23,706 nt of DNA from a virus (IMGVR_UViG_2579779009_000002), one strand, 5' to 3'; counted from the first letter of the stretch, positions 3,998 to 14,202 are shown. Made by a program: numbers and translations. The notes: generated by a model from the letters alone, not told the origin.

Positions 3998-4224
3998 TGG
4001 CTGATGCAATGGATCTCGTACAGCAGCGCGTTGAAGAAGAACGCCAGCGCCATATTCGTGCTGCCCGTGCCAAAACACCGGGCGTGTCTCGCGTGCTTTG
4101 TATTGAATGTGAAGCGCCAATTCCGCCAGCACGACGCCGCGCCATTCCGGGAGTGCAGCTTTGCATTACCTGCCAGGAAATCGCAGAGCTGAAAGGCAAA
4201 CATTACAACGGAGGTGCTGTATGA
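3997..4224 (+). CDS. TraR/DksA-family C4 zinc-finger protein
   Basis: 75 aa with CIEC...(17 aa)...CITC four-cysteine motif typical of phage/plasmid TraR/DksA-like proteins; stop overlaps the dam start (ATGA). Confidence 0.7.
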   Translation: MADAMDLVQQRVEEERQRHIRAARAKTPGVSRVLCIECEAPIPPARRRAIPGVQLCITCQEIAELKGKHYNGGAV

Positions 4225-5078
4225 GCACCATCCTGAAATGGGCGGGAAATAAAACCGCCATTATGTCCGAACTGAAAAAACACCTTCCTGCTGGCCCGCG
4301 ACTGGTTGAACCTTTCGCGGGTTCCTGTGCTGTGATGATGGAGACGGATTACCCCAGCTATCTGGTTGCGGATATTAATCCTGATTTAATCAACCTCTAT
4401 AAAAAGGTTGCCGCTGATTGCGAGGCGTTTATATCTCGTGCCAGAGCTTTATTTGAGGAAGCAAACAGGGAGGTGGCTTATTACAACATAAGGCAGGAGT
4501 TTAATTACTCCACTGAAATTACTGATTTCATGAAAGCGGTATATTTCCTGTATCTCAATCGTCATGGTTACCGTGGGTTATGTCGCTATAACAAGAGCGG
4601 GCATTTCAACATTCCCTATGGGAATTATAAAAATCCGTATTTCCCTGAAAAAGAAATTCGCAAATTTGCAGAAAAAGCCCAGCGAGCAACGTTTATCTGC
4701 GCCAGCTTTGATGAAACGCTGGCGATGTTGAAGGCGGGGGATGTGGTGTATTGCGATCCGCCTTATTACGGTACGTTTTCCGGCTATCACACTGATGGCT
4801 TCACTGAGGATGACCAGTATCACCTGGCATCCGTTCTTGAACATCGATCATCTGAAGGTCATCCGGTCATTGTTTCTAACAGTGACACATCCCTGATTCG
4901 TTCGCTGTATCGCAATTTCACTCACCACTACATCAAGGCAAAACGCAGCATCGGCGTGTCGGCTGGCGAGAGTAAATCTGCAACAGAAATCATTGCTGTT
5001 TCCGGGGCGCGCTGCTGGGTGGGATTTGATCCTTCGCGTGGCGTAGATAGTTCTGCTGTGTACGAGGTGCGTGTATGA
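4221..5078 (+). CDS. dam: DNA N6-adenine methyltransferase (Dam-like)
   Basis: ATG at 4221 after GGAGG; N-terminal ILKWAGNK...PFAGSCAV (AdoMet binding) and the catalytic DPPY motif ([12 protein letters not shown]); stop overlaps the replication gene start. Confidence 0.85.
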
Positions 5079-7489
5079 GTCATGACGATATGAGCAACTC
5101 TAGCGGCTTTAACGAGGCCGCCGCATCATTTTCATGGAACGGCCCGAAAAAGGCCATTAACCCTTATCTGGACCCGGCGGAAGTTGCGCCGGAGTCTGCA
5201 CTTTCAAACCTGATCACTCTGTATGCTGCCGATAACGAGCAGGAACAACTGCGCCGCGAGGCACTGAGTGAGCAGGTCTGGGAGCGTTATTTCTTTAATG
5301 AATCCCGTGATCCTGTCCAGCGCGAAATGGAGCAGGATAAGCTCATTAGCCGGGCAAAGCTGGCGCATGAGCAGCAGCGTTTTAATCCAGACATGGTCAT
5401 TCTGGCTGACGTCAACGCCCAGCCTTCCCATATCAGCAAGCCGCTGATGCAACGTATTGAATACTTCAGCAGCCTGGGCAGGCCAAAGGCTTATTCCCGC
5501 TATTTGCGTGAGACGATTAAGCCATGTCTGGAACGGCTGGAGCATGTACGCGACAGTCAGCTATCCACTTCTTTTCGCTTTATGGCGAGCCATGAAGGGC
5601 TGGACGGCCTGCTGATCCTGCCTGAAATGAGTCAGGATCAGGTGAAACGCCTGTCCACCCTGGTAGCTGCGCATATGAGCATGTGCCTTGATGCAGCTTG
5701 TGGCGATTTGTATGCCACCGATGACGTTAAGCCAGAAGAAATCCGCAAGACATGGGAAAGGGTGGCAGCAGAAACCCTGCGACTGGATGTCATCCCACCT
5801 GCGTTTGAGCAACTCCGCCGGAAAAGAAACCGCCGTAAACCCGTGCCCTATGAACTCATTCCGGGTTCGCTGGCGCGTATGTTGTGCGCCGACTGGTGGT
5901 ACCGGAAATTATGGAAGATGCGTTGCGAATGGCGGGAAGAGCAGTTGCGCGCTGTCTGCCTGGTCAGCAAAAAAGCATCTCCCTATGTCAGCTATGAAGC
6001 CGTGATGCATAAACGTGAGCAGCGCCGTAAGTCGCTGGAGTTTTTTCGTTCTCATGAACTGGTGAACGAAGACGGCGACACGCTGGATATGGAAGACGTG
6101 GTAAACGCCAGCAGCAGCAACCCTGCACATCGCCGCAATGAGATGATGGCCTGTGTTAAAGGTCTGGAGCTTATCGCGGAAATGCGCGGTGACTGCGCCG
6201 TTTTCTACACCATCACCTGTCCGTCACGTTTCCATTCCACGCTCAATAACGGCAGACCAAACCCAACCTGGACAAATGCGACGGTAAGACAAAGCAGCGA
6301 TTATCTGGTCGGCATGTTTGCTGCATTTCGTAAGGCGATGCACAAAGCCGGGTTGCGCTGGTATGGCGTGCGGGTGGCTGAGCCGCATCATGACGGTACG
6401 GTTCACTGGCACCTGTTGTGTTTCATGCGCAAAAAAGAGCGCCGTGCCATTACAGCATTGTTGTGTAAGTTTGCCATCCGTGAAGACCGCGAGGAACTGG
6501 GTAATAACACTGGTCCACGCTTTAAATCTGAGCTGATAAACCCGCGCAAAGGAACACCGACAAGCTACATCGCGAAATACATTAGTAAGAACATTGACGG
6601 GCGTGGTCTGGCTGGCGAGATCAGCAAGGAAACGGGTAAATCCCTGCGTGATAACGCTGAATACGTTAATGCCTGGGCGTCTCTGCATCGTGTTCAGCAA
6701 TTCCGCTTCTTTGGTATTCCGGGGCGTCAGGCTTACCGTGAACTGCGATTGCTGGCTGGTCAGGCGGCAAGGCAACAGGGCGACAAAAAAGCAGGTGCGC
6801 CGGTACTGGATAACCCGCGCCTTGATGCCATCCTGGCTGCTGCTGATGCTGGTTGTTTTGCCACTTACATCATGAAGCAGGGTGGCGTACTGGTTCCCCG
6901 CAAATATCACCTCATCAGAACTGCTTATGAAATTAACGAAGAGCCGACCGCCTATGGCGATCACGGCATTCGTATTTATGGCATCTGGTCACCCATTGCA
7001 GAGGGCAAGATCTGCACTCATGTAGTGAAGTGGAAAATGGTTCGTAAAGCCGTTGACGTTCAGGAGGCGGTAGCCGACCAGGGCGCTTGCGCCCCTTGGA
7101 CTCGTGGCAATAACTGTCCCCTTGCTGAAAATTTGTACCAACAAGGGAAAGACAAATCAGCTGATGGAGATACCAGAACGGATATCACCCGTATGGATGA
7201 CAAGGAGTTGCACGATTACCTGCACAGTATGAGCAAAAAAGAGCGCCGGGAACTGGCAGCAAGGTTACGCCTGGTGAAACCGAAACGGCGTAAAGACTAC
7301 AAACAGCGAATTACAGACCATCAACGACAGCAGCTCGTCTATGAACTGAAGTCCAGAGGATTTGATGGCAGCGAGAAAGAGGTCGATTTACTCCTTCGCG
7401 GCGGCAGCATTCCGTCAGGAGCAGGCCTGCGTATCTTCTATCGGAACCAGCGTTTGCAGGAAGATGATAAGTGGCGGAACCTGTATTAA
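5075..7489 (+). CDS. A: Rolling-circle replication initiation protein (P2 gpA / 186 RepA family, HUH endonuclease)
   Basis: 804 aa; HUH-type motif [16 protein letters not shown] and active-site tyrosine region [13 protein letters not shown]. In P2 the origin lies inside this gene (established knowledge, not located here). Confidence 0.9.
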
Positions 7490-7642: not shown

Positions 7643-7831
7643 ATGCAGGACTATTTTTTGGAGTCTTTGAAGCTCCAGCGCATTGATTTTTTTCTTAAGC
7701 TTGTAGCGGCTAGTGAGTGTAGTGATGAAGAGAAGGGGCTGGCTCTGCAGTGGGTTTCTGAATTGACTGATGAACTCATGGCAAAAATCAGAACCCACGA
7801 ATACAACCGCTCAATGGATGTCATCAGCTGA
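7643..7831 (+). CDS. Small protein in the LexA-controlled operon; candidate Tum-like antirepressor
   Basis: ATG at 7643 preceded by AGGAGG (7633-7638); 62 aa. Function inferred only from position downstream of the LexA box and next to a DinI-like gene. Confidence 0.5.
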   Translation: MQDYFLESLKLQRIDFFLKLVAASECSDEEKGLALQWVSELTDELMAKIRTHEYNRSMDVIS

Positions 7832-7841
7832 GGTGACTTTT

Positions 7842-8075
7842 ATGCGCATTGAAATAATGATCGATAAAGAGCAGAAGATTAGCCAGTCTACACTGGACGC
7901 CCTTGAATCCGAGCTTTACCGCAATCTGCGCCCCCTGTATCCCAAAACGGTAATTCGTATCCGCAAAGGTAGCTCTAACGGTGTGGAACTGACCGGACTG
8001 CAACAGGACGAAGAAAGAAAACAAGTGATGAAAATTATGCAGAAGGTGTGGGAAGACGACAGCTGGCTGCATTAA
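7842..8075 (+). CDS. DinI-like protein (SOS-regulated RecA modulator family)
   Basis: 77 aa beginning MRIEIMIDKEQ and ending KVWEDDSWLH, collinear with E. coli DinI (MRIEV...ETWESADDWF) as I recall it; GAGGTG 6 nt upstream of the ATG. Confidence 0.75.
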   Translation: MRIEIMIDKEQKISQSTLDALESELYRNLRPLYPKTVIRIRKGSSNGVELTGLQQDEERKQVMKIMQKVWEDDSWLH

Positions 8076-8345: not shown

Positions 8346-8561
8346 ATGTCAAGCATCGCCGCATTTAGCCTGGGTAACCCAGTTGAACGTCTGGCAAGGG
8401 TTCTTAAAGAGAACCAGGACAAACTCAATCTTAGTAAAGATGGTTTTGTGTCCGTAGACTTGTCTAACAAAAGAGCAATGGATGCCATCAAGGCACAGAT
8501 GGATAAGCTTGAAGGCATCAAAACGAGCACTGTAAAAGAGAAAACTAATAGAACCAGATAA
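8346..8561 (+). CDS. Hypothetical 71-aa hydrophilic protein, first gene of the accessory two-gene cassette
   Basis: ATG at 8346 preceded by AAGGGGGAG; stop overlaps the next gene's start (TAATG); AT-rich; no recognisable motif. Confidence 0.6.
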   Translation: MSSIAAFSLGNPVERLARVLKENQDKLNLSKDGFVSVDLSNKRAMDAIKAQMDKLEGIKTSTVKEKTNRTR

Positions 8562-9403
8562 TGGCAACATTACTTTTAGCAGTGATTTTGGTTAGTGGTT
8601 TTATTTATGTAAACCTATCACTTTCAACAAGATACCGATATAAGCGTTCCAACGGCTGGGACGCTTATTTTTTTGTGGCTGCCTGGGGTATCGTTTTTTT
8701 TCTCCTTGGCGGTTTTTTCACCTTTATTTTGAACGTCAGCGGAGGGTTTCGTTGGCTGGCTAATGCCTTGAATCTAACACCTGACAGTTTTAATGGCATG
8801 TTGTCTTCATCGAAAGACAAACTTCAAAGAATAAATGAAATCAAACAGATAGCATGGGTTATGATTTCAATTGTCCTCGCTGCGATTTCAGGTTTTGGAA
8901 ATAAGTTACGCACATCACGTGGAGATCGTCGCTGGGATGCCTTAGCTAAAGCTGTGGGTAATAACGCTTTCGAATCATTACTTATGGAAGCGTCCGCAAG
9001 ACAGTTTCCGATCATAGCAACTCTGTCGTCTCGCAAAATCTATGTTGGCCTTGTTACTTGTCCGGCGTTAGAAAACGGGCTTTCAGAGCACCTTGAACTT
9101 CTCCCGATGTTAAGCGGATATCGGGATAAAGATGATCTAACGATTAGTATCACGACTAACTATCACCAACATTATCTTGATAGTGGTGTGATAAGTGGAA
9201 TGTCTCGGCTTAATATCGAAGATTTCCGTGTGCTCATACCAAAAGATGAGGTTGAAACAATTTCGTTTTTTGATACTGAGACATATAACAAATTTAAAGA
9301 AAATGAAGCCAGGGATAGAAAGAACTGTCGAAAGATTGGTAGTAAAAGTGCATCTTCGCGCAGCAAGCGTGCAGCAGATGCTGAGTCAAATGATCGTGCA
9401 TGA
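8561..9403 (+). CDS. Hypothetical 280-aa inner-membrane protein (three predicted TM helices plus about 165-aa C-terminal soluble domain), second gene of the accessory cassette
   Basis: Hydrophobic stretches ATLLLAVILVSGFIYVNL, YFFVAAWGIVFFLLGGFFTFILNV and IAWVMISIVLAAISGFG; Ser/Lys/Arg-rich C-terminal tail; translationally coupled to the upstream small ORF. Confidence 0.7.
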   Translation: MATLLLAVILVSGFIYVNLSLSTRYRYKRSNGWDAYFFVAAWGIVFFLLGGFFTFILNVSGGFRWLANALNLTPDSFNGMLSSSKDKLQRINEIKQIAWVMISIVLAAISGFGNKLRTSRGDRRWDALAKAVGNNAFESLLMEASARQFPIIATLSSRKIYVGLVTCPALENGLSEHLELLPMLSGYRDKDDLTISITTNYHQHYLDSGVISGMSRLNIEDFRVLIPKDEVETISFFDTETYNKFKENEARDRKNCRKIGSKSASSRSKRAADAESNDRA

Positions 9404-9451: not shown

Positions 9452-9476
9452 GCCCGCCAGAACTGGCGGGCTTTTG
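9452..9476 (+). terminator. Rho-independent terminator candidate downstream of the two-gene cassette
   Basis: GCCCGCCA / TGGCGGGC 8-bp stem with 4-nt loop, followed by TTTTG. Confidence 0.5.
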
Positions 9477-9520
9477 CGTAGATCATGCAACTGCATGAAA
9501 ACCACTACATAAAGCGGGCA

Positions 9521-9539
9521 GGCGTGGCGGGGATACGAG
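9521..9539. other. Candidate cohesive-end (cos) site of a P2/186-type phage
   Basis: GGCGTGGCGGGGATACGAG: the first 13 nt match the 186/P2 cos overhang as I recall it (186 GGCGTGGCGGGGAAAGCAT; P2 GGCGAGGCGGGGAAAGCAC). Position on the cos-proximal side of portal gene Q is as expected. The last 6 nt differ, so this is tentative. Confidence 0.4.
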
Positions 9540-9547
9540 CGCGCGCA

Positions 9548-9570
9548 TTGATTTCAAAAGATGAAATCAA
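9548..9570. promoter_or_regulatory. Perfect 9-bp inverted repeat TTGATTTCA-N5-TGAAATCAA upstream of the 565-aa gene (operator-like)
   Basis: Seen directly in the sequence, about 50-70 bp upstream of ATG 9617; a plausible -35 (TTCAAA) / -10 (TACGAT) pair overlaps it. Confidence 0.35.
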
Positions 9571-9616
9571 GTGGTACGATAAGTAGGATTACTACCAATT
9601 CTCAAAGGGATGTCTC

Positions 9617-11314
9617 ATGCATAGAATTGTTAAAGCTCATCTTGATAACTTCGTGAAAAGTCACGGTATTGAAAATCATCAAGAGGACACGCAGTTCGAG
9701 CTATTTTGTAATAAAGCTTTGCTGTCTTCTCGTATAAGTATGGATTATGAAATTGACGATGTAACAACCGGGGCTGGTGATGATGGCATGGATGGTGTTG
9801 CCATCATAATTGATGAAGAATTGTGTATATCTTCTGAAGATGCTACTTCAATATTTTCCTCATTACGTAAAAATCATGATGTTGATATTGTTTTCATTCA
9901 ATCAAAGCGTAGTGAGTCTTTTGATTTAGGTGATTTTTTAAAGTTTAAAGCTTCCGTTTTTAGATTTATAGAGGATTCTCCTTACTTATGTGTAGATGAA
10001 ATTCAAAAAAATGCAAGGGAAGTTTTTGATGTCATAATAAAAAATGTACCTAAGATAAGAGGTGGGCGACCAACTTTTACTGCTAAATATGTTGCAACTG
10101 GTTTATATAAAAAACCTAAAGAGTTAGAGAATGCTCGGAAGTTATTTGCAAAAGAAATTGACGAGTTGGGATATTTCTGTAATGTTAGCGTTGAGTTTGT
10201 TGATCGTGATGAATTAACACGTACTTGGATTGATACTTATTCAGTTGTCAATGCTGAATTGCCATTATTTAGTAATGCACCACTTCCCAAAATTAATGGT
10301 ATAGAAGAAGCTTATCTTGCTGTCGTTAAAGCAAAGGATTTTGTTGGTAATTTATTGATGACGGACGAGGGGTCTCTCCGTAATCATGTTTTTGTTGAGA
10401 ACGTCCGGGCGTTCTTGGGAATTGATAATCCTGTTAACGCATCGATTGCTGAGACAATTAAAAATAAAGATGCCGCTTCACGATTTCCTGTTTTAAATAA
10501 TGGAATAACAATTGTTAGTCCGGATGTAAAACTTCAAGGGAGTATTTTACATCTAGAAAATTTTCAGATAGTTAATGGCTGTCAGACATCAAATGTGCTT
10601 TACGAATGCCGCGATTCCTTAGATGATACGATGATGGTTAACTTGAAAGTCGTAGAGACATTAAACGAAGATGTTTTTTCAGAATTGGTTCGAGCGACTA
10701 ACAGTCAGACTAAGGTTGATGAGACTCAGTTCTATTCTCTTCGTCCAATAATAAAGAAAGTAGAAGCGTACTTTGATACTTATGAAGGGCAGGATGGTCG
10801 TTTATATTTAGAAAGACGTGAAAGACAATTTATCGGTAGAGATATACCTGCAGTTAGAGTATTTTCAGTTCATATGGCAGCTAAATGTGTAGCAGCTATG
10901 TTCTTCCGTCGGCCAGATCTTTCATATAGATACCCTAAAAAAATGTATGAATTGTTGGCTGAGAAAATATTTTCTAATGATACCAAGGAGATTGTATTTT
11001 ATTCAGCATGTTTAACATTATATAGATTACACCTACTTACTTCTAATGCTGATATTCCACAAAATATCAGGAAGTACAAATGGCATTTAATGGCGGTAGT
11101 TGGTGCTTTAATTGCCGGAAAGGATGTGCCTAATTTTGGCTCTAAGAAAATGGATGCGTATTGTAATAAAATCATCACTGAAATGACAAAGCATGGTGAT
11201 AAAATAAAAGCTACTTTCCAGAAGGCTGTTGATATTGTTTTGTCAATTGATGATATCACTGATGATAGAATGAAAAGGCAAGCTATTTTAGAGGAAATGC
11301 TTGCCAAGATTTAA
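9617..11314 (+). CDS. Large 565-aa accessory protein; candidate AIPR-family abortive-infection protein (tentative)
   Basis: ATG at 9617 with AAAGGGA upstream; very AT-rich (about 30% GC on a hand-counted 60-nt sample, versus about 58% in a late-gene sample). Motifs NNGITIV and QIVNGCQT resemble, from memory, conserved blocks of the AIPR family (PF10592). N-terminal GAGDDGMDGVAIIIDEE...FIQSKRS could be a PD-(D/E)xK-like nuclease signature (speculative). Confidence 0.7.
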   Translation: MHRIVKAHLDNFVKSHGIENHQEDTQFELFCNKALLSSRISMDYEIDDVTTGAGDDGMDGVAIIIDEELCISSEDATSIFSSLRKNHDVDIVFIQSKRSESFDLGDFLKFKASVFRFIEDSPYLCVDEIQKNAREVFDVIIKNVPKIRGGRPTFTAKYVATGLYKKPKELENARKLFAKEIDELGYFCNVSVEFVDRDELTRTWIDTYSVVNAELPLFSNAPLPKINGIEEAYLAVVKAKDFVGNLLMTDEGSLRNHVFVENVRAFLGIDNPVNASIAETIKNKDAASRFPVLNNGITIVSPDVKLQGSILHLENFQIVNGCQTSNVLYECRDSLDDTMMVNLKVVETLNEDVFSELVRATNSQTKVDETQFYSLRPIIKKVEAYFDTYEGQDGRLYLERRERQFIGRDIPAVRVFSVHMAAKCVAAMFFRRPDLSYRYPKKMYELLAEKIFSNDTKEIVFYSACLTLYRLHLLTSNADIPQNIRKYKWHLMAVVGALIAGKDVPNFGSKKMDAYCNKIITEMTKHGDKIKATFQKAVDIVLSIDDITDDRMKRQAILEEMLAKI

Positions 11315-11365
11315 TTATACCTTGACATGTATATTAACGTGATTTTTTAAGTTGAATATCTAAGT

Positions 11366-11399
11366 AAAAAGAGTGCTTTTATTGTTAAGCACTCTTTTT
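11366..11399. terminator. Bidirectional rho-independent terminator between the 565-aa gene (+) and portal gene Q (-)
   Basis: AAAAAGAGTGCTT - loop - AAGCACTCTTTTTT: GC-containing stem flanked by an A-tract on one side and a T-tract on the other, so it can terminate either strand. Confidence 0.6.
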
Positions 11400-11401
11400 T
11401 A

Positions 11402-12436
11402 TTAAGCTAACTCAAGGCTATATGTATTGAATTTAATAATGTCATCTTCTACCCACTCATTAATTTCTTTGATTCTTTCCTGTAAGGGGGTTAATTCGTT
11501 ACGGACGAATACCTTGCTGGCTTTTTCAATATCGCCAAATCCACCAGTGTTTTGTGGAATAATGCCCATCATCTGCGGAGGAACTCGATGTGCTGCCATC
11601 ATGTCATCGCGACTGACATTTTTGATATTCAGAAACTCATCCTTCGCCGCGACTTCTGACAACGGGATGATCTGAAGCCCGTCCTTTTTGCCGTTAGGCG
11701 AGTACATAAACAAATTGCGGAAGTTGCCTGGACCTTTGGCACTTTTCATCGCGTTGCGGAGGTTGTTTACATCTTCCTGGTTTTGCGCGGCGTCGGTCAT
11801 GTACATGATGAAGCCTGCATGACTGCCGTTAATGTAATACTTCCGGCGGAACAGCGTGGCGGACTCGTTGAGCAGGGCTGACGGAATGACAGAAAGATAG
11901 CCGGGCAGGCCGTAGATTTCTTGATTAATATCCGGCTCCATCAGGTGAAAAATGCTGCCTTTCGTGAACTGATACGGCTGCGTGGTCATGCCGTATTGCA
12001 CAAACCAGTAGGTATCCAGGTCTAACCCGCGTCGGGTGTATTTTGCCAGCGCAGGCTCAAGGGCGATAACTTCACCGAATCGGTTCGTGCGTTTCTCCAG
12101 GTAGGCGTTACCAAATACCAGATAGTCCTGCACAAAACGCGAAAAAGCCTGCTGGCTGAGCAGCGGGTGGGGGATGTAGGTACTGGTCAGAATGTTGCAT
12201 TTCACCGCAATTGGTGAACTGTGATGCACGGCGGCGCGGAAGGTGCGCGCCAGTCCGTCAAAGCTTACTGGCGGCTCATACCAGCGATCTGTCTGTAAGC
12301 ATTCCACATAGTCCAGCAGTTCGCGGCGGTCCAGAACAGGAACGGGATCACCGAAGCTGAATGCTTCGGCTGTAGTTTGACTTTTATGCTGGATCTGGTT
12401 CGTCGACGCAGCGCGGTTCTTCTTACTCTTTCCCAT
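11402..12436 (-). CDS. Q: Portal protein (P2 gpQ family)
   Basis: About 344 aa, the length of P2 gpQ, in the position and orientation of P2 Q (leftward, downstream of P, next to cos); ATG at 12434-12436 with GGAGA upstream; start overlaps the terminase stop (TGATG). Confidence 0.9.
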   Translation of the reverse strand: MGKSKKNRAASTNQIQHKSQTTAEAFSFGDPVPVLDRRELLDYVECLQTDRWYEPPVSFDGLARTFRAAVHHSSPIAVKCNILTSTYIPHPLLSQQAFSRFVQDYLVFGNAYLEKRTNRFGEVIALEPALAKYTRRGLDLDTYWFVQYGMTTQPYQFTKGSIFHLMEPDINQEIYGLPGYLSVIPSALLNESATLFRRKYYINGSHAGFIMYMTDAAQNQEDVNNLRNAMKSAKGPGNFRNLFMYSPNGKKDGLQIIPLSEVAAKDEFLNIKNVSRDDMMAAHRVPPQMMGIIPQNTGGFGDIEKASKVFVRNELTPLQERIKEINEWVEDDIIKFNTYSLELA

Positions 12437-14202
12437 CAAAAAATCTCCACAATATTACTGGTATTGGCGGACTCGCCCTGCAGTGGTTCGTTAAACAGTG
12501 CGTGCATTGTTGCCCAGGCCAGATCGGCGTGGCTGGCTTCTTCGCTGCGGCTGGCTTCATAGGTTGGGCGGTTGCCACTGGCGGTGGTTGCGCGACGGAT
12601 TGCCATGAATGACTGCGCAATGTCGGTGTGCCCGGCGTCAAACTCCAGACGGCGGTGGCTGATAATGTCGTAGGCCTTGAGTACCAGGGCGTTTTTAACG
12701 TTGGGGTTGTAGACAAACTCCCGGACGGCAGGAAAGAACGCTTTCACGTTCTCGTAAACCCCGTGACCAACGCCGGTTGAGTCGATACCGATATAGGTCA
12801 CGTTGTACTGTTCGGTAAGTTTTTTGATGGCGTCAGCCTGGGCGCGGAAGTCCATCCCGCGCCACTGGTGACGCTCAAGAATGCGGAACTTACCACCCGG
12901 CACGGCTGGCGGTGCCACCACCACGCATCCAGCGCTGTCGCCGTTTTGCGTACCTTTTGCCGGGTCATAACCGATCCACACTTCGCGCCAGCCAAACGGG
13001 CGCAGCGCCAGTGCATGAAAGTCGGTCCAGACTTCCCAACTGTCCACCATGCACGCCTGCAGCTCGCTGAGCGGAAACACGGACGCGAGATCGTCCACAA
13101 ACTCGCACATCAGCAGGTTCTGGTATTCGTCCGGGCTGTACTCCATGCGTAGCTGGTCGAGGTCGAACAGGTTACAGCCGCCGCGCACCGCATCTTCCAC
13201 GGTGACTATCTGGCGGTATTGCCCGTCTGCGCACAGCAGGCCGGGGGCCAGATTGCTGTGGGACAGGTCGATGTCCACCTTATCGGCTTTGTTGCGCCCA
13301 CGGTTGAACAGCGCACCGGACCAGAACGGATAAGCACTGTGTGTCAGACTGGATGGCGTGGAAAAATAGGTTTGTCGCCATTTTTTGTGAATAGCCATAC
13401 CGGAAGCCACTTTGCGCAGCTCCTGGAATTTCGGTATCCAGAAATATTCATCCAGATACAGGTTGCCGTGGTAACTCTGGGCCGTGCGGGCATTGGTGCC
13501 GAGGAAGTAAAGCGTGGCCCCGTTAGGAAGCACCATCGGATCGCCTTTCAGCTCCACCTCCACTTCTTTGGCAAAGTCGATGATGTACTGTTTAAAGACG
13601 TGGGCCTGAGCCTTGCTGGCAGAAAGGAAAATCTGGTTACGCCCGGTCAGCAGGGCGTCAATCAGGGCTTCACGGGCAAAGTAAAAGGTCGCGCCGATCT
13701 GGCGTGACTTCAGCAGGTTGCGGATGCGGTTGGTTTTTCCGGCTTCCCACCAGTGGCGCTGGTAGTTGAACATGGAGGAATGGAAGATTTCTTCCAGTTT
13801 CTCAATCTGTTCATCGGTGAAAACATTCTTTTCCGGCTGACGACGTGGGCCTTTGTTGCGGTTGGCAACGTTAGGGTTTAAGTCGGCTTCGTTGCCGCCA
13901 TTGTTAAACTTGCCGATCCGCGCGTGGCGCTCAGACTGGCGTGCCAGCAGGTCAATTTCTTTGAAATCTTTCCCTTCTTTGTGCTCCTTCATAATGAGCT
14001 GGCAGTAGCGTGCGGCGGTGGTGAGCTGCATCTGATCCAGCGGCCCATAGTCACCCCACTTGTCGCGTTTTTTCCAGCTGTGAACGGTTGCAACTTTCTC
14101 GCCCAGCATTTCAGCAATGCGGGCGACGCGGTATCCCTGAAAGTACAGCAGCATGGCCTGCCGACGGGGATCGAGATCTGCGGGTGTCAGTGTGGTGTTC
14201 AT
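12436..14202 (-). CDS. P: Terminase large (ATPase) subunit (P2 gpP family)
   Basis: 588 aa, close to the 590 aa of P2 gpP, upstream of Q on the same strand and divergent from the O operon; the assignment rests on length and gene order. Confidence 0.9.
   Translation of the reverse strand: MNTTLTPADLDPRRQAMLLYFQGYRVARIAEMLGEKVATVHSWKKRDKWGDYGPLDQMQLTTAARYCQLIMKEHKEGKDFKEIDLLARQSERHARIGKFNNGGNEADLNPNVANRNKGPRRQPEKNVFTDEQIEKLEEIFHSSMFNYQRHWWEAGKTNRIRNLLKSRQIGATFYFAREALIDALLTGRNQIFLSASKAQAHVFKQYIIDFAKEVEVELKGDPMVLPNGATLYFLGTNARTAQSYHGNLYLDEYFWIPKFQELRKVASGMAIHKKWRQTYFSTPSSLTHSAYPFWSGALFNRGRNKADKVDIDLSHSNLAPGLLCADGQYRQIVTVEDAVRGGCNLFDLDQLRMEYSPDEYQNLLMCEFVDDLASVFPLSELQACMVDSWEVWTDFHALALRPFGWREVWIGYDPAKGTQNGDSAGCVVVAPPAVPGGKFRILERHQWRGMDFRAQADAIKKLTEQYNVTYIGIDSTGVGHGVYENVKAFFPAVREFVYNPNVKNALVLKAYDIISHRRLEFDAGHTDIAQSFMAIRRATTASGNRPTYEASRSEEASHADLAWATMHALFNEPLQGESANTSNIVEIF

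Follow-up and report, generated by a model that had tools for sequence, protein, structure and literature searches.

An AbiU-type AIPR family gene as cargo between cos and the portal gene of a Fels-2/186-like prophage

The gene considered here occupies positions 9617-11314 on the plus strand of a 23,706-nucleotide stretch of viral DNA (IMGVR_UViG_2579779009_000002; "the window" means this whole stretch) and encodes a protein of 565 amino acids (aa) from an ATG start. We read it as a horizontally acquired, single-gene anti-phage cassette of the AbiU type, within the AIPR family, carried in the cos-adjacent hotspot of a Fels-2/186-like prophage, and we put the probability of this reading at about three in four. 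The gene is intact and conserved, has a terminator of its own and sits in a slot that elsewhere is filled by defence genes. A previous interpretation made from the DNA without database searches (below, the sequence-only reading) had proposed an AIPR-type abortive-infection protein at this position, and judged by the profile matches, its family call was right.

The assignment to the AIPR family and the AbiU type is carried by comparisons with Pfam and with defence and phage protein databases. The Pfam AIPR profile (PF10592) matched with 150 bits against a cutoff of 25 (E=1.5e-43), with residues 260-514 aligned to profile positions 2-274 of 308, and the PADLOC AbiU model (PDLC02357) matched over the full length of the protein (E=4.4e-112; residues 2-563 of 565 on profile positions 3-532 of 537). 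The family PHROG 1841 ("Abi") matched with E=5e-147. AIPR was the only Pfam domain matched in the protein. The two sequence blocks that had first suggested the family, NNGITIV (residues 294-300; 10496-10516) and QIVNGCQT (residues 317-324; 10565-10588), are both there, and N294, N295, G296, T298, N320, G321, Q323 and T324 within them are invariant in an alignment of 119 relatives of 25-57% identity, from which the conservation counts given below are also taken. Membership in the narrower MzaE group was rejected: the NCBIfam equivalog model (NF041935) gave 42 bits against a cutoff of 1050, and the neighbors of the gene are cos and the portal gene, with no Mza partners. The protein is not MzaE because the resemblance, confined to residues 258-400, is limited to the shared AIPR core, while its N- and C-terminal regions have no counterpart in the AIPR protein of the MZA system.

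The open reading frame (ORF) is real and intact, with 565 codons compared to a longest stop-free run of 146 codons in 300 shuffles of the same bases. It is also clearly foreign in composition to its surroundings, having a GC content of 0.347 (0.253 at third codon positions) against 0.499 (0.592) for the portal gene Q, 0.563 for the P gene and 0.506 for the whole window. The AT-rich contrast described in the sequence-only reading thus stands, but its value of about 30% GC was a hand count that came out too low. Since the window has no in-frame start codon upstream of 9617, 565 aa is likely the true family length, and 565-566 aa is also the length of most relatives. The Fels-2-type allele of Escherichia coli EC444 (L173:4162-5913; L numbers denote the loci compared here) has been given 583 aa by PGAP, from a start 18 codons further upstream.

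The N-terminal region (residues 1-250; 9617-10366, plus strand) is, in the structural model, a nuclease domain of the PD-(D/E)xK fold with an E...D...QxK signature. The model has the alpha/beta core of the restriction-endonuclease-like superfamily, and the acidic residue and the QxK of the catalytic signature are located on core strands. The putative catalytic residues are E28 (9698-9700), conserved in 115 of the 119 relatives and placed on the first long helix (23-36); D59 (9791-9793), conserved in all 119 and placed at the start of the core strand 60-65; and Q95 (9899-9901; 118/119) and K97 (9905-9907; 107/119), which form the Q95-x-K97 element on strand 89-96. The nuclease type had been anticipated, but the D...E..K pattern proposed for it is not the conserved one. 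In fold comparison, the best scores were obtained with FokI (10.4), N.BspD6I (8.5), MspJI (8.3), the small subunit of R.BspD6I (8.1), AF1548 (8.1), AspBHI (7.9) and Avs4 (7.2), and lower ones with CdiA-CT toxins, LlaBIII, NucS, HamA and NucC; all of these are PD-(D/E)xK nucleases and many are restriction or defence effectors. The domain was recognized by fold comparison alone because the sequence searches came back empty, i.e., Pfam at E<=10, phmmer of the protein against the PDB and the family profile against the PDB. With the nuclease domains of FokI, MspJI and AspBHI it shares 8-16% identity and no sequence-level match, and the recognition domains of those enzymes are unrelated to the window protein. 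The E...D...QxK arrangement presumably resembles the Mrr-type signature; we do not claim Mrr membership because the Pfam scan of the domain gave no family. An N-terminal HEPN domain has been stated for AIPR proteins (PMC3506569). This was rejected for the present protein, the fold being alpha/beta PD-(D/E)xK and the R3-x4-H8 pattern not being visible in the consensus of distant relatives.

The AIPR core (residues 260-514; 10394-11158, plus strand) contains a set of invariant residues, N262, R264, N274, N294-N295-G296-x-T298, N320-G321-(C)-Q323-T324, N362 and R400. AbiU1/AIPR has been described as a ParB-superfamily domain that is often fused to nucleases (Makarova et al., PMC3632139), and the core possibly has a ParB/sulfiredoxin (Srx)-like fold, a model-based proposal that we regard as moderately supported. 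The top PDB match of the core in Foldseek was ParB-N, a weak match at E=0.06, and no PDB match was obtained at E<=0.001. Profile-profile comparison by hhalign of the family profiles A1 and A4 with two DUF262 proteins and the DndB-like protein of the cos-Q slot gave probabilities below 1%, which is uninformative or negative, and the AlphaFold model of the isolated residues 252-416, with a predicted local distance difference test (pLDDT) score of 44.7, was not used for the ParB comparison. The C-terminal region (residues 418-565; 10868-11311, plus strand) is all helical in the secondary structure of the model (pLDDT 80-94) and may have a role in recognition or regulation.

The gene content identifies the window as a Fels-2/186-type prophage of the P2 family. 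From left to right are found the integrase and CI repressor genes, replication gene A (5075-7489), DinI/Tum (7770-8075), a pair of small cargo genes (8346-9403), the hairpin of a terminator, cos, the AIPR gene, the convergent Q (11402-12439, minus strand) and P (12436-14202) and then the head, lysis and tail genes, an arrangement established from ORF calls, Pfam matches and the annotated orthologous regions of Fels-2 and E. coli. A DNA adenine methylase gene is located at 4161-5078, just 5' of gene A, as is STM2730 in Fels-2, and it may bear on self-tolerance if the AIPR nuclease proves sensitive to DNA modification.

By homology, cos can be placed at 9519-9537. The record of phage 186 starts at cos, annotated as nucleotides 1-19, and that of P2 annotates cosL and cosR; the ends of the records were joined and then aligned. 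The window junction ...TCATGCAACTGCATGAAAACCACTACATAAAGCGGGCA/GGCGTGGCGGGGATACGAG (slash at the junction) aligns with the joined ends of 186, GGCGTGGCGGGGATACGAG being the 19-nucleotide cohesive-end sequence, and the junction common to the window, 186 and P2 reads ...CATGCAACTGCAT.AAAACC....CATAAAG.GGGCA/GGCGTGGCGGGGA... within a conserved core at 9491-9544, about -28 to +26 relative to the cut. GGCGTGGCGGGGATACGAG is the majority cos 19-mer (104 of 134 related loci) and departs from the cohesive ends of 186 (..AAAGCAT) and P2/P4 (GGCGAGGCGGGGAAAGCAC) in the final six bases. The P2 19-mer itself, searched for in the window with up to three mismatches, gave no match, the Fels-2-type cos differing from it at more positions. 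Because cos is placed at 9519-9537, the AIPR gene lies between cos and Q and is the first gene after cos, as had been proposed. In the window, cos and the Q stop codon are about 1.9 kb apart, compared to about 170-180 bp in 186 and P2.

This interval is a site of exchange. Around cos, the majority base is conserved at 0.9 or more between about -28 and +25 and at about 0.4 from +27 on, and because of this collapse at +27, we place the start of the cargo 7-8 nucleotides past the cohesive end, at window position 9545; megablast matches to other phages end at 9546-9567, in support of this left boundary. With the Q stop codon taken as the right boundary, the variable cargo module spans 9545-11401 (plus strand) at a GC content of 0.34 and contains the AIPR gene together with signals of its own at the 5' and 3' ends, while Q, which has annotated orthologs in Fels-2 and E. 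coli, is the conserved right border of the slot. The P4 hotspot inserts in the supplement of Rousset et al. appear to break at +26/27 as well (...AAAGCACTGCGCGC/variable).

We surveyed the slot in 80 viral contigs and 80 genomes of different species, anchored on the portal gene, by seeking a cos 13-mer downstream of Q, for which well below 0.01 chance matches are expected per locus. In the viral contigs, cos was found in 75 cases, with 73 intervals occupied and 2 empty, and in the genomes in 59 cases, with 50 occupied and 9 empty, so that overall the interval is filled at 123 of 134 loci and empty at 11. Cargo between cos and Q had been called unusual for a P2-like phage, and these counts contradict that notion for the present lineage. 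Empty intervals measure about 180-270 bp and occupied ones 0.5-5.4 kb. The 123 occupied loci hold 233 ORFs in 136 clusters, and 171 of the 177 ORFs of at least 150 aa are oriented from cos to Q, the same as the AIPR gene. Among the 105 cluster representatives with 150 aa or more, a scan recognized AbiL, AriA/PARIS, Old, PtuA (Septu), RT-Toprim retron, GmrSD_N, TIR, PIN, Cap4 nuclease, DprA, SieB, AbiC, DndB and three AIPR clusters. The cos-Q slot is part of the gpA-gpQ defence hotspot of the P2 family, for which 1650 arrangements in 18,150 loci have been reported (Rousset et al. 2022, PMC9122126): the gene is found between A and Q, beside cos, in the variable region. AbiU has since been listed in both the P2 and the P4 hotspots in a 2026 survey (PMC13586616) and has been mapped to prophages specific to Salmonella Typhimurium.

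Closely related alleles occupy the same position. STM2723.1.Fels2 (YP_001718749.1) of Fels-2 (NC_010463) has 85% DNA identity to the window gene and lies between cos and Q in the same orientation, and WP_087890510.1 of E. coli is likewise carried in a Fels-2-like prophage at the cos-Q position in the same orientation. These alleles are 84-85% identical to the window gene at the DNA level, but the similarity stops at window position 11316 and does not extend into the terminator region 3' of the stop codon. The Fels-2 record labels its ortholog merely "hypothetical protein," whereas WP_087890510.1 is labeled "AIPR family protein." The latter, which is the AIPR protein beside the portal gene in E. 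coli EC444, appears in the P2 hotspot listing of Rousset et al., whose supplementary tables contain AIPR repeatedly. Among 5426 complete E. coli genomes, 7 carry the gene (as "AIPR family protein") and 1269 carry the flanking cos region.

The exact protein was found in 445 index blocks of public assemblies. Five of the six exact-protein loci that were read directly adjoin the portal gene, and the sixth is without the Q-to-M genes. At locus L176, gpL, tail-X and holin genes come immediately after the intact AIPR gene, and Q, P, O, N and M are uncalled, which suggests a decaying prophage that keeps its defence gene. More widely, the family is both large and closely conserved: a word-indexed search gave 1959 homologs, and with exhaustive HMMER searching the number of cluster representatives was 3602 when E<=1e-3 was allowed and 550 when E<=1e-30 was required. 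Of the 150 best HMMER representatives, most can be aligned over their whole length, even where identity is as low as about 27%. Gammaproteobacteria, Deltaproteobacteria and Bacteroidales all have relatives that share the full length of 565 aa and are 61-67% identical. Neighbors are wholly different among the loci from Halioxenophilus, Bacteroidales, Thermodesulfobacteriota and Brenneria, and restriction-modification or toxin-antitoxin genes adjoin several of these loci. Because these relatives in other phyla have unrelated neighbors, the gene would seem to work without a dedicated partner, and across six phage loci and four nonphage loci, we found no conserved partner gene. The nonphage loci (L180 from Brenneria tiliae, L167, L169 and L171; 61-89% identity) have settings that include CcdB/Phd remnants, insertion sequence elements and transposases, a PLD/NgoFVII-like enzyme and an AAA_15 ATPase with MmeI/Eco57I restriction-modification. 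The cassette moves between defence islands and phage hotspots across phyla.

Other AIPR clades use the same sites. A second clade was seen in the cos-Q slot (L046:5038-6783, minus strand, and four similar viral loci), with 582 aa, 26% core identity and the block SIVNGAQT, and P4 satellites carry a third (pFR77 of Rousset et al.). A DG.D...Q motif near the N terminus is kept in all three clades.

The clearest signal flanking the gene is a bidirectional intrinsic terminator at 11366-11399, between the convergent AIPR and Q genes, with a 13-bp stem between an A-run and a T-run. Its folding energy is -18.3 kcal/mol on the plus strand and -16.6 kcal/mol on the minus strand, none of 200 shuffles equaled it, and its end is 3 nucleotides from the Q stop codon (11402-11404). 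A terminator shared by the two genes had been described before and is borne out, as is an upstream palindrome; the simple consensus scan did not output this terminator. The palindrome is an inverted repeat at 9548-9570, at the cargo junction, with perfect 9-nucleotide arms (TTGATTTCA at 9548-9556 and TGAAATCAA at 9562-9570), a 5-nucleotide spacer and a fold z score of -2.9. Its function is doubtful because the left arm is not conserved at the Fels-2 locus, and for the same reason we rejected a role as an operator as unsupported. Downstream of it are a candidate extended -10 element, TGgTACGAT (9572-9580, plus strand), identical at the Fels-2 and E. coli 30EVA1 loci, and, 3' of this, a Shine-Dalgarno sequence, AGGGA (9606-9610, plus strand). 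On the other side of cos, a hairpin at 9452-9471 (plus strand; arms GCCCGCCAG and CTGGCGGGC, followed by TTTT; -23.9 kcal/mol, z=-4.8) would terminate the upstream unit of DinI/Tum and the pre-cos cargo, and it is the positional equivalent of t95b, annotated just 5' of cos in 186.

How the protein would act is most likely, on the modeled architecture, as a single-chain sensor-nuclease. The gene would be expressed from the prophage, like old and tin of P2, and would give the lysogen protection from unrelated phages. Infection would be sensed by the C-terminal domain together with the AIPR core, which is probably a nucleotide- or DNA-binding module of the ParB/Srx-like kind, and the two would release the N-terminal nuclease to attack nucleic acid, DNA being the likeliest substrate; this cleavage would stall phage transcription and replication. 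A precedent is AbiU of Lactococcus lactis (AbiUi/AbiU1; Dai et al. 2001), the system for which the PADLOC model, matched over the full length, is named. AbiU, too, works as a single protein, and FokI is superimposable on its AlphaFold model as well (PMC13064643). According to PMC13064643, which cites Dai 2001, AbiUi alone confers resistance and delays phage transcription. Unlike the window gene, it is plasmid borne in a Gram-positive host and has a downstream HEPN partner, AbiUii, that lowers its activity, and no such neighbor is present at the window locus. No structure or biochemistry of an AbiU was present in the literature searched.

Among prophage genes, old and tin of P2 and tum and orf97 of 186 resemble the window gene in being accessory or exclusion genes in the cos-proximal gpA-gpQ hotspot (PMC9122126), but they lie across cos, toward gpA, and transcription of the P2 genes leads away from it. 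Their families are unrelated to AIPR, the P2 OLD protein being an ATPase-TOPRIM protein. In logic, a parallel can be drawn with the type IV enzymes GmrSD, BrxU and SspE, in which a ParB-like DUF262 module and a nuclease are joined in a single chain, as the putative ParB/Srx-like core and the nuclease of the window protein would be, and which, as GmrSD-type genes, occupy the same phage slot at other loci. The window protein differs in its reversed domain order, in having a PD-(D/E)xK nuclease instead of HNH/DUF1524 and in its NGCQT motif instead of DGQQR. GmrSD/BrxU proteins are defined by DUF262 plus DUF1524, and in the window protein Pfam gave AIPR only and hhalign against two GmrSD_N proteins was negative. 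It is tempting, if rather speculative, to go further and see in AbiU-type AIPR proteins a mechanistically undescribed class of single-chain defence nucleases, in which a ParB/Srx-like, nucleotide-gated switch (NNGxT/NGCQT/ERR) would control an N-terminal Mrr/FokI-like PD-(D/E)xK domain as a mirror-image analogue of GmrSD/BrxU, with cos +27 as a point of exchange between helper and satellite; we consider this extended proposal unlikely as a whole.

Several observations weigh against an active defence cassette. The loss of the gene is tolerated, since a near-identical copy in E. coli 30EVA1 (L002:12162-13915; 98.8% identity) is annotated as frameshifted. The consensus promoter scan gave nothing above chance, because of which TGgTACGAT can only be proposed as a promoter. 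The effect of AbiU in L. lactis is modest, with a reduction in the efficiency of plating of just 10- to 100-fold (PMC13064643). Finally, the P4-borne AIPR of Rousset et al. (pFR77), from another clade and with 28% core identity to the window protein, does not figure among the seven systems for which that study saw protection against its eight phages.

The frameshifted copy, the lack of validation of the P4 AIPR and the small share of E. coli genomes with the gene (7, against 1269 with the flanking cos region) speak for a gene that is carried along and contributes little or nothing to defence in this host, or for one in some other service of the phage, such as competition with cos-sharing P4-like satellites or P2-like phages; AIPR genes do adjoin cos in both P2-like and P4-like elements. 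We nevertheless find this improbable, as the catalytic and core residues are under strong purifying selection across thousands of relatives, the exact protein recurs in the public assemblies counted above, and AbiU has been reported as a working defence countered by a characterized Vibrio-phage anti-defence protein, Surt (bioRxiv 10.1101/2024.06.14.598830). Very improbable is an effector that, with the same PD-(D/E)xK fold, would be an RNase. An RNA target would account for the "delayed transcription," but the top fold matches are all DNA endonucleases, and ParB/Srx-like modules, of which AIPR is possibly one, bind DNA or nucleotides.

The other alternatives concern the fate of the infected cell. 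In classical abortive infection, the triggered nuclease would degrade host and phage nucleic acid alike and the cell would be sacrificed. In favor of this are the name of the family, the phenotype first described in L. lactis (PMC13064643) and fold neighbors that include the abortive-system effectors NucC, Cap4-like proteins, Can2/Card1, HamA and Avs4; against it are the mildness of the L. lactis effect and the lack of an antitoxin or regulator partner at the loci examined, and we hold it to be a credible but minority explanation. Somewhat doubtful to us is a restriction-like direct immunity, in which a type IV or modification-dependent endonuclease, analogous to GmrSD/BrxU or MspJI, would recognize some feature of incoming phage DNA and cut it, and the host would survive. 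Against it are the lack of any sequence relation to DUF262/GmrSD or DndB in hhalign, the name of AbiU, which was given for a phenotype of the abortive type, with delayed transcription, and not for restriction (PMC13064643), and the adenine methylase of the prophage itself (4161-5078), whose activity the enzyme would need to tolerate.

The prophage has a second cargo slot on the gpA side of cos. In the window (8346-9403), it holds a 71-aa ORF (PHROG 9843) overlapping a 280-aa ORF (PHROG 3630), the latter with an N-terminal third rich in hydrophobic, membrane-like stretches; neither had a Pfam or PADLOC match, and the 280-aa ORF has no similarity to 186 Orf97 or Fels-2 STM2726. At loci with the identical AIPR protein, this slot instead contains ORFs of 185 and 193 aa on the other strand, a DUF8087 protein, or an ASCH protein with an Mrr_cat-like protein. 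Because the gpA-side genes differ while the AIPR protein is identical, the two slots exchange independently. At L059, L090 and other loci, mechanical calls of several cargo ORFs run upstream through cos and create spurious N termini of the type "...HENHYTKRAGVAGIRARA" over the first ~40 residues, and automated annotation of the cos-Q slot may carry the same error.

In conclusion, the gene is a new copy of a catalogued defence gene at a described hotspot. As a discovery it has little weight: RefSeq already has the "AIPR family protein," Fels-2 has it at the same locus, the hotspot was described in 2022 and AbiU as P2/P4 cargo in 2026, and since both the gene and its cos-adjacent position are thus on record, the finding is correct but ordinary. 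It does correct the notion that cargo between cos and Q is exceptional, and it shows two cargo slots of this phage lineage, one on each side of a 54-bp conserved cos core, that exchange independently of each other. What is also useful is an anatomy of AbiU with residues to mutate, E28, D59, Q95 and K97 in the putative nuclease and N294-T298, N320-T324 and E399-R401 in the core. The allele, being abundant in E. coli/Salmonella, would lend itself well to work on AbiU as a model.

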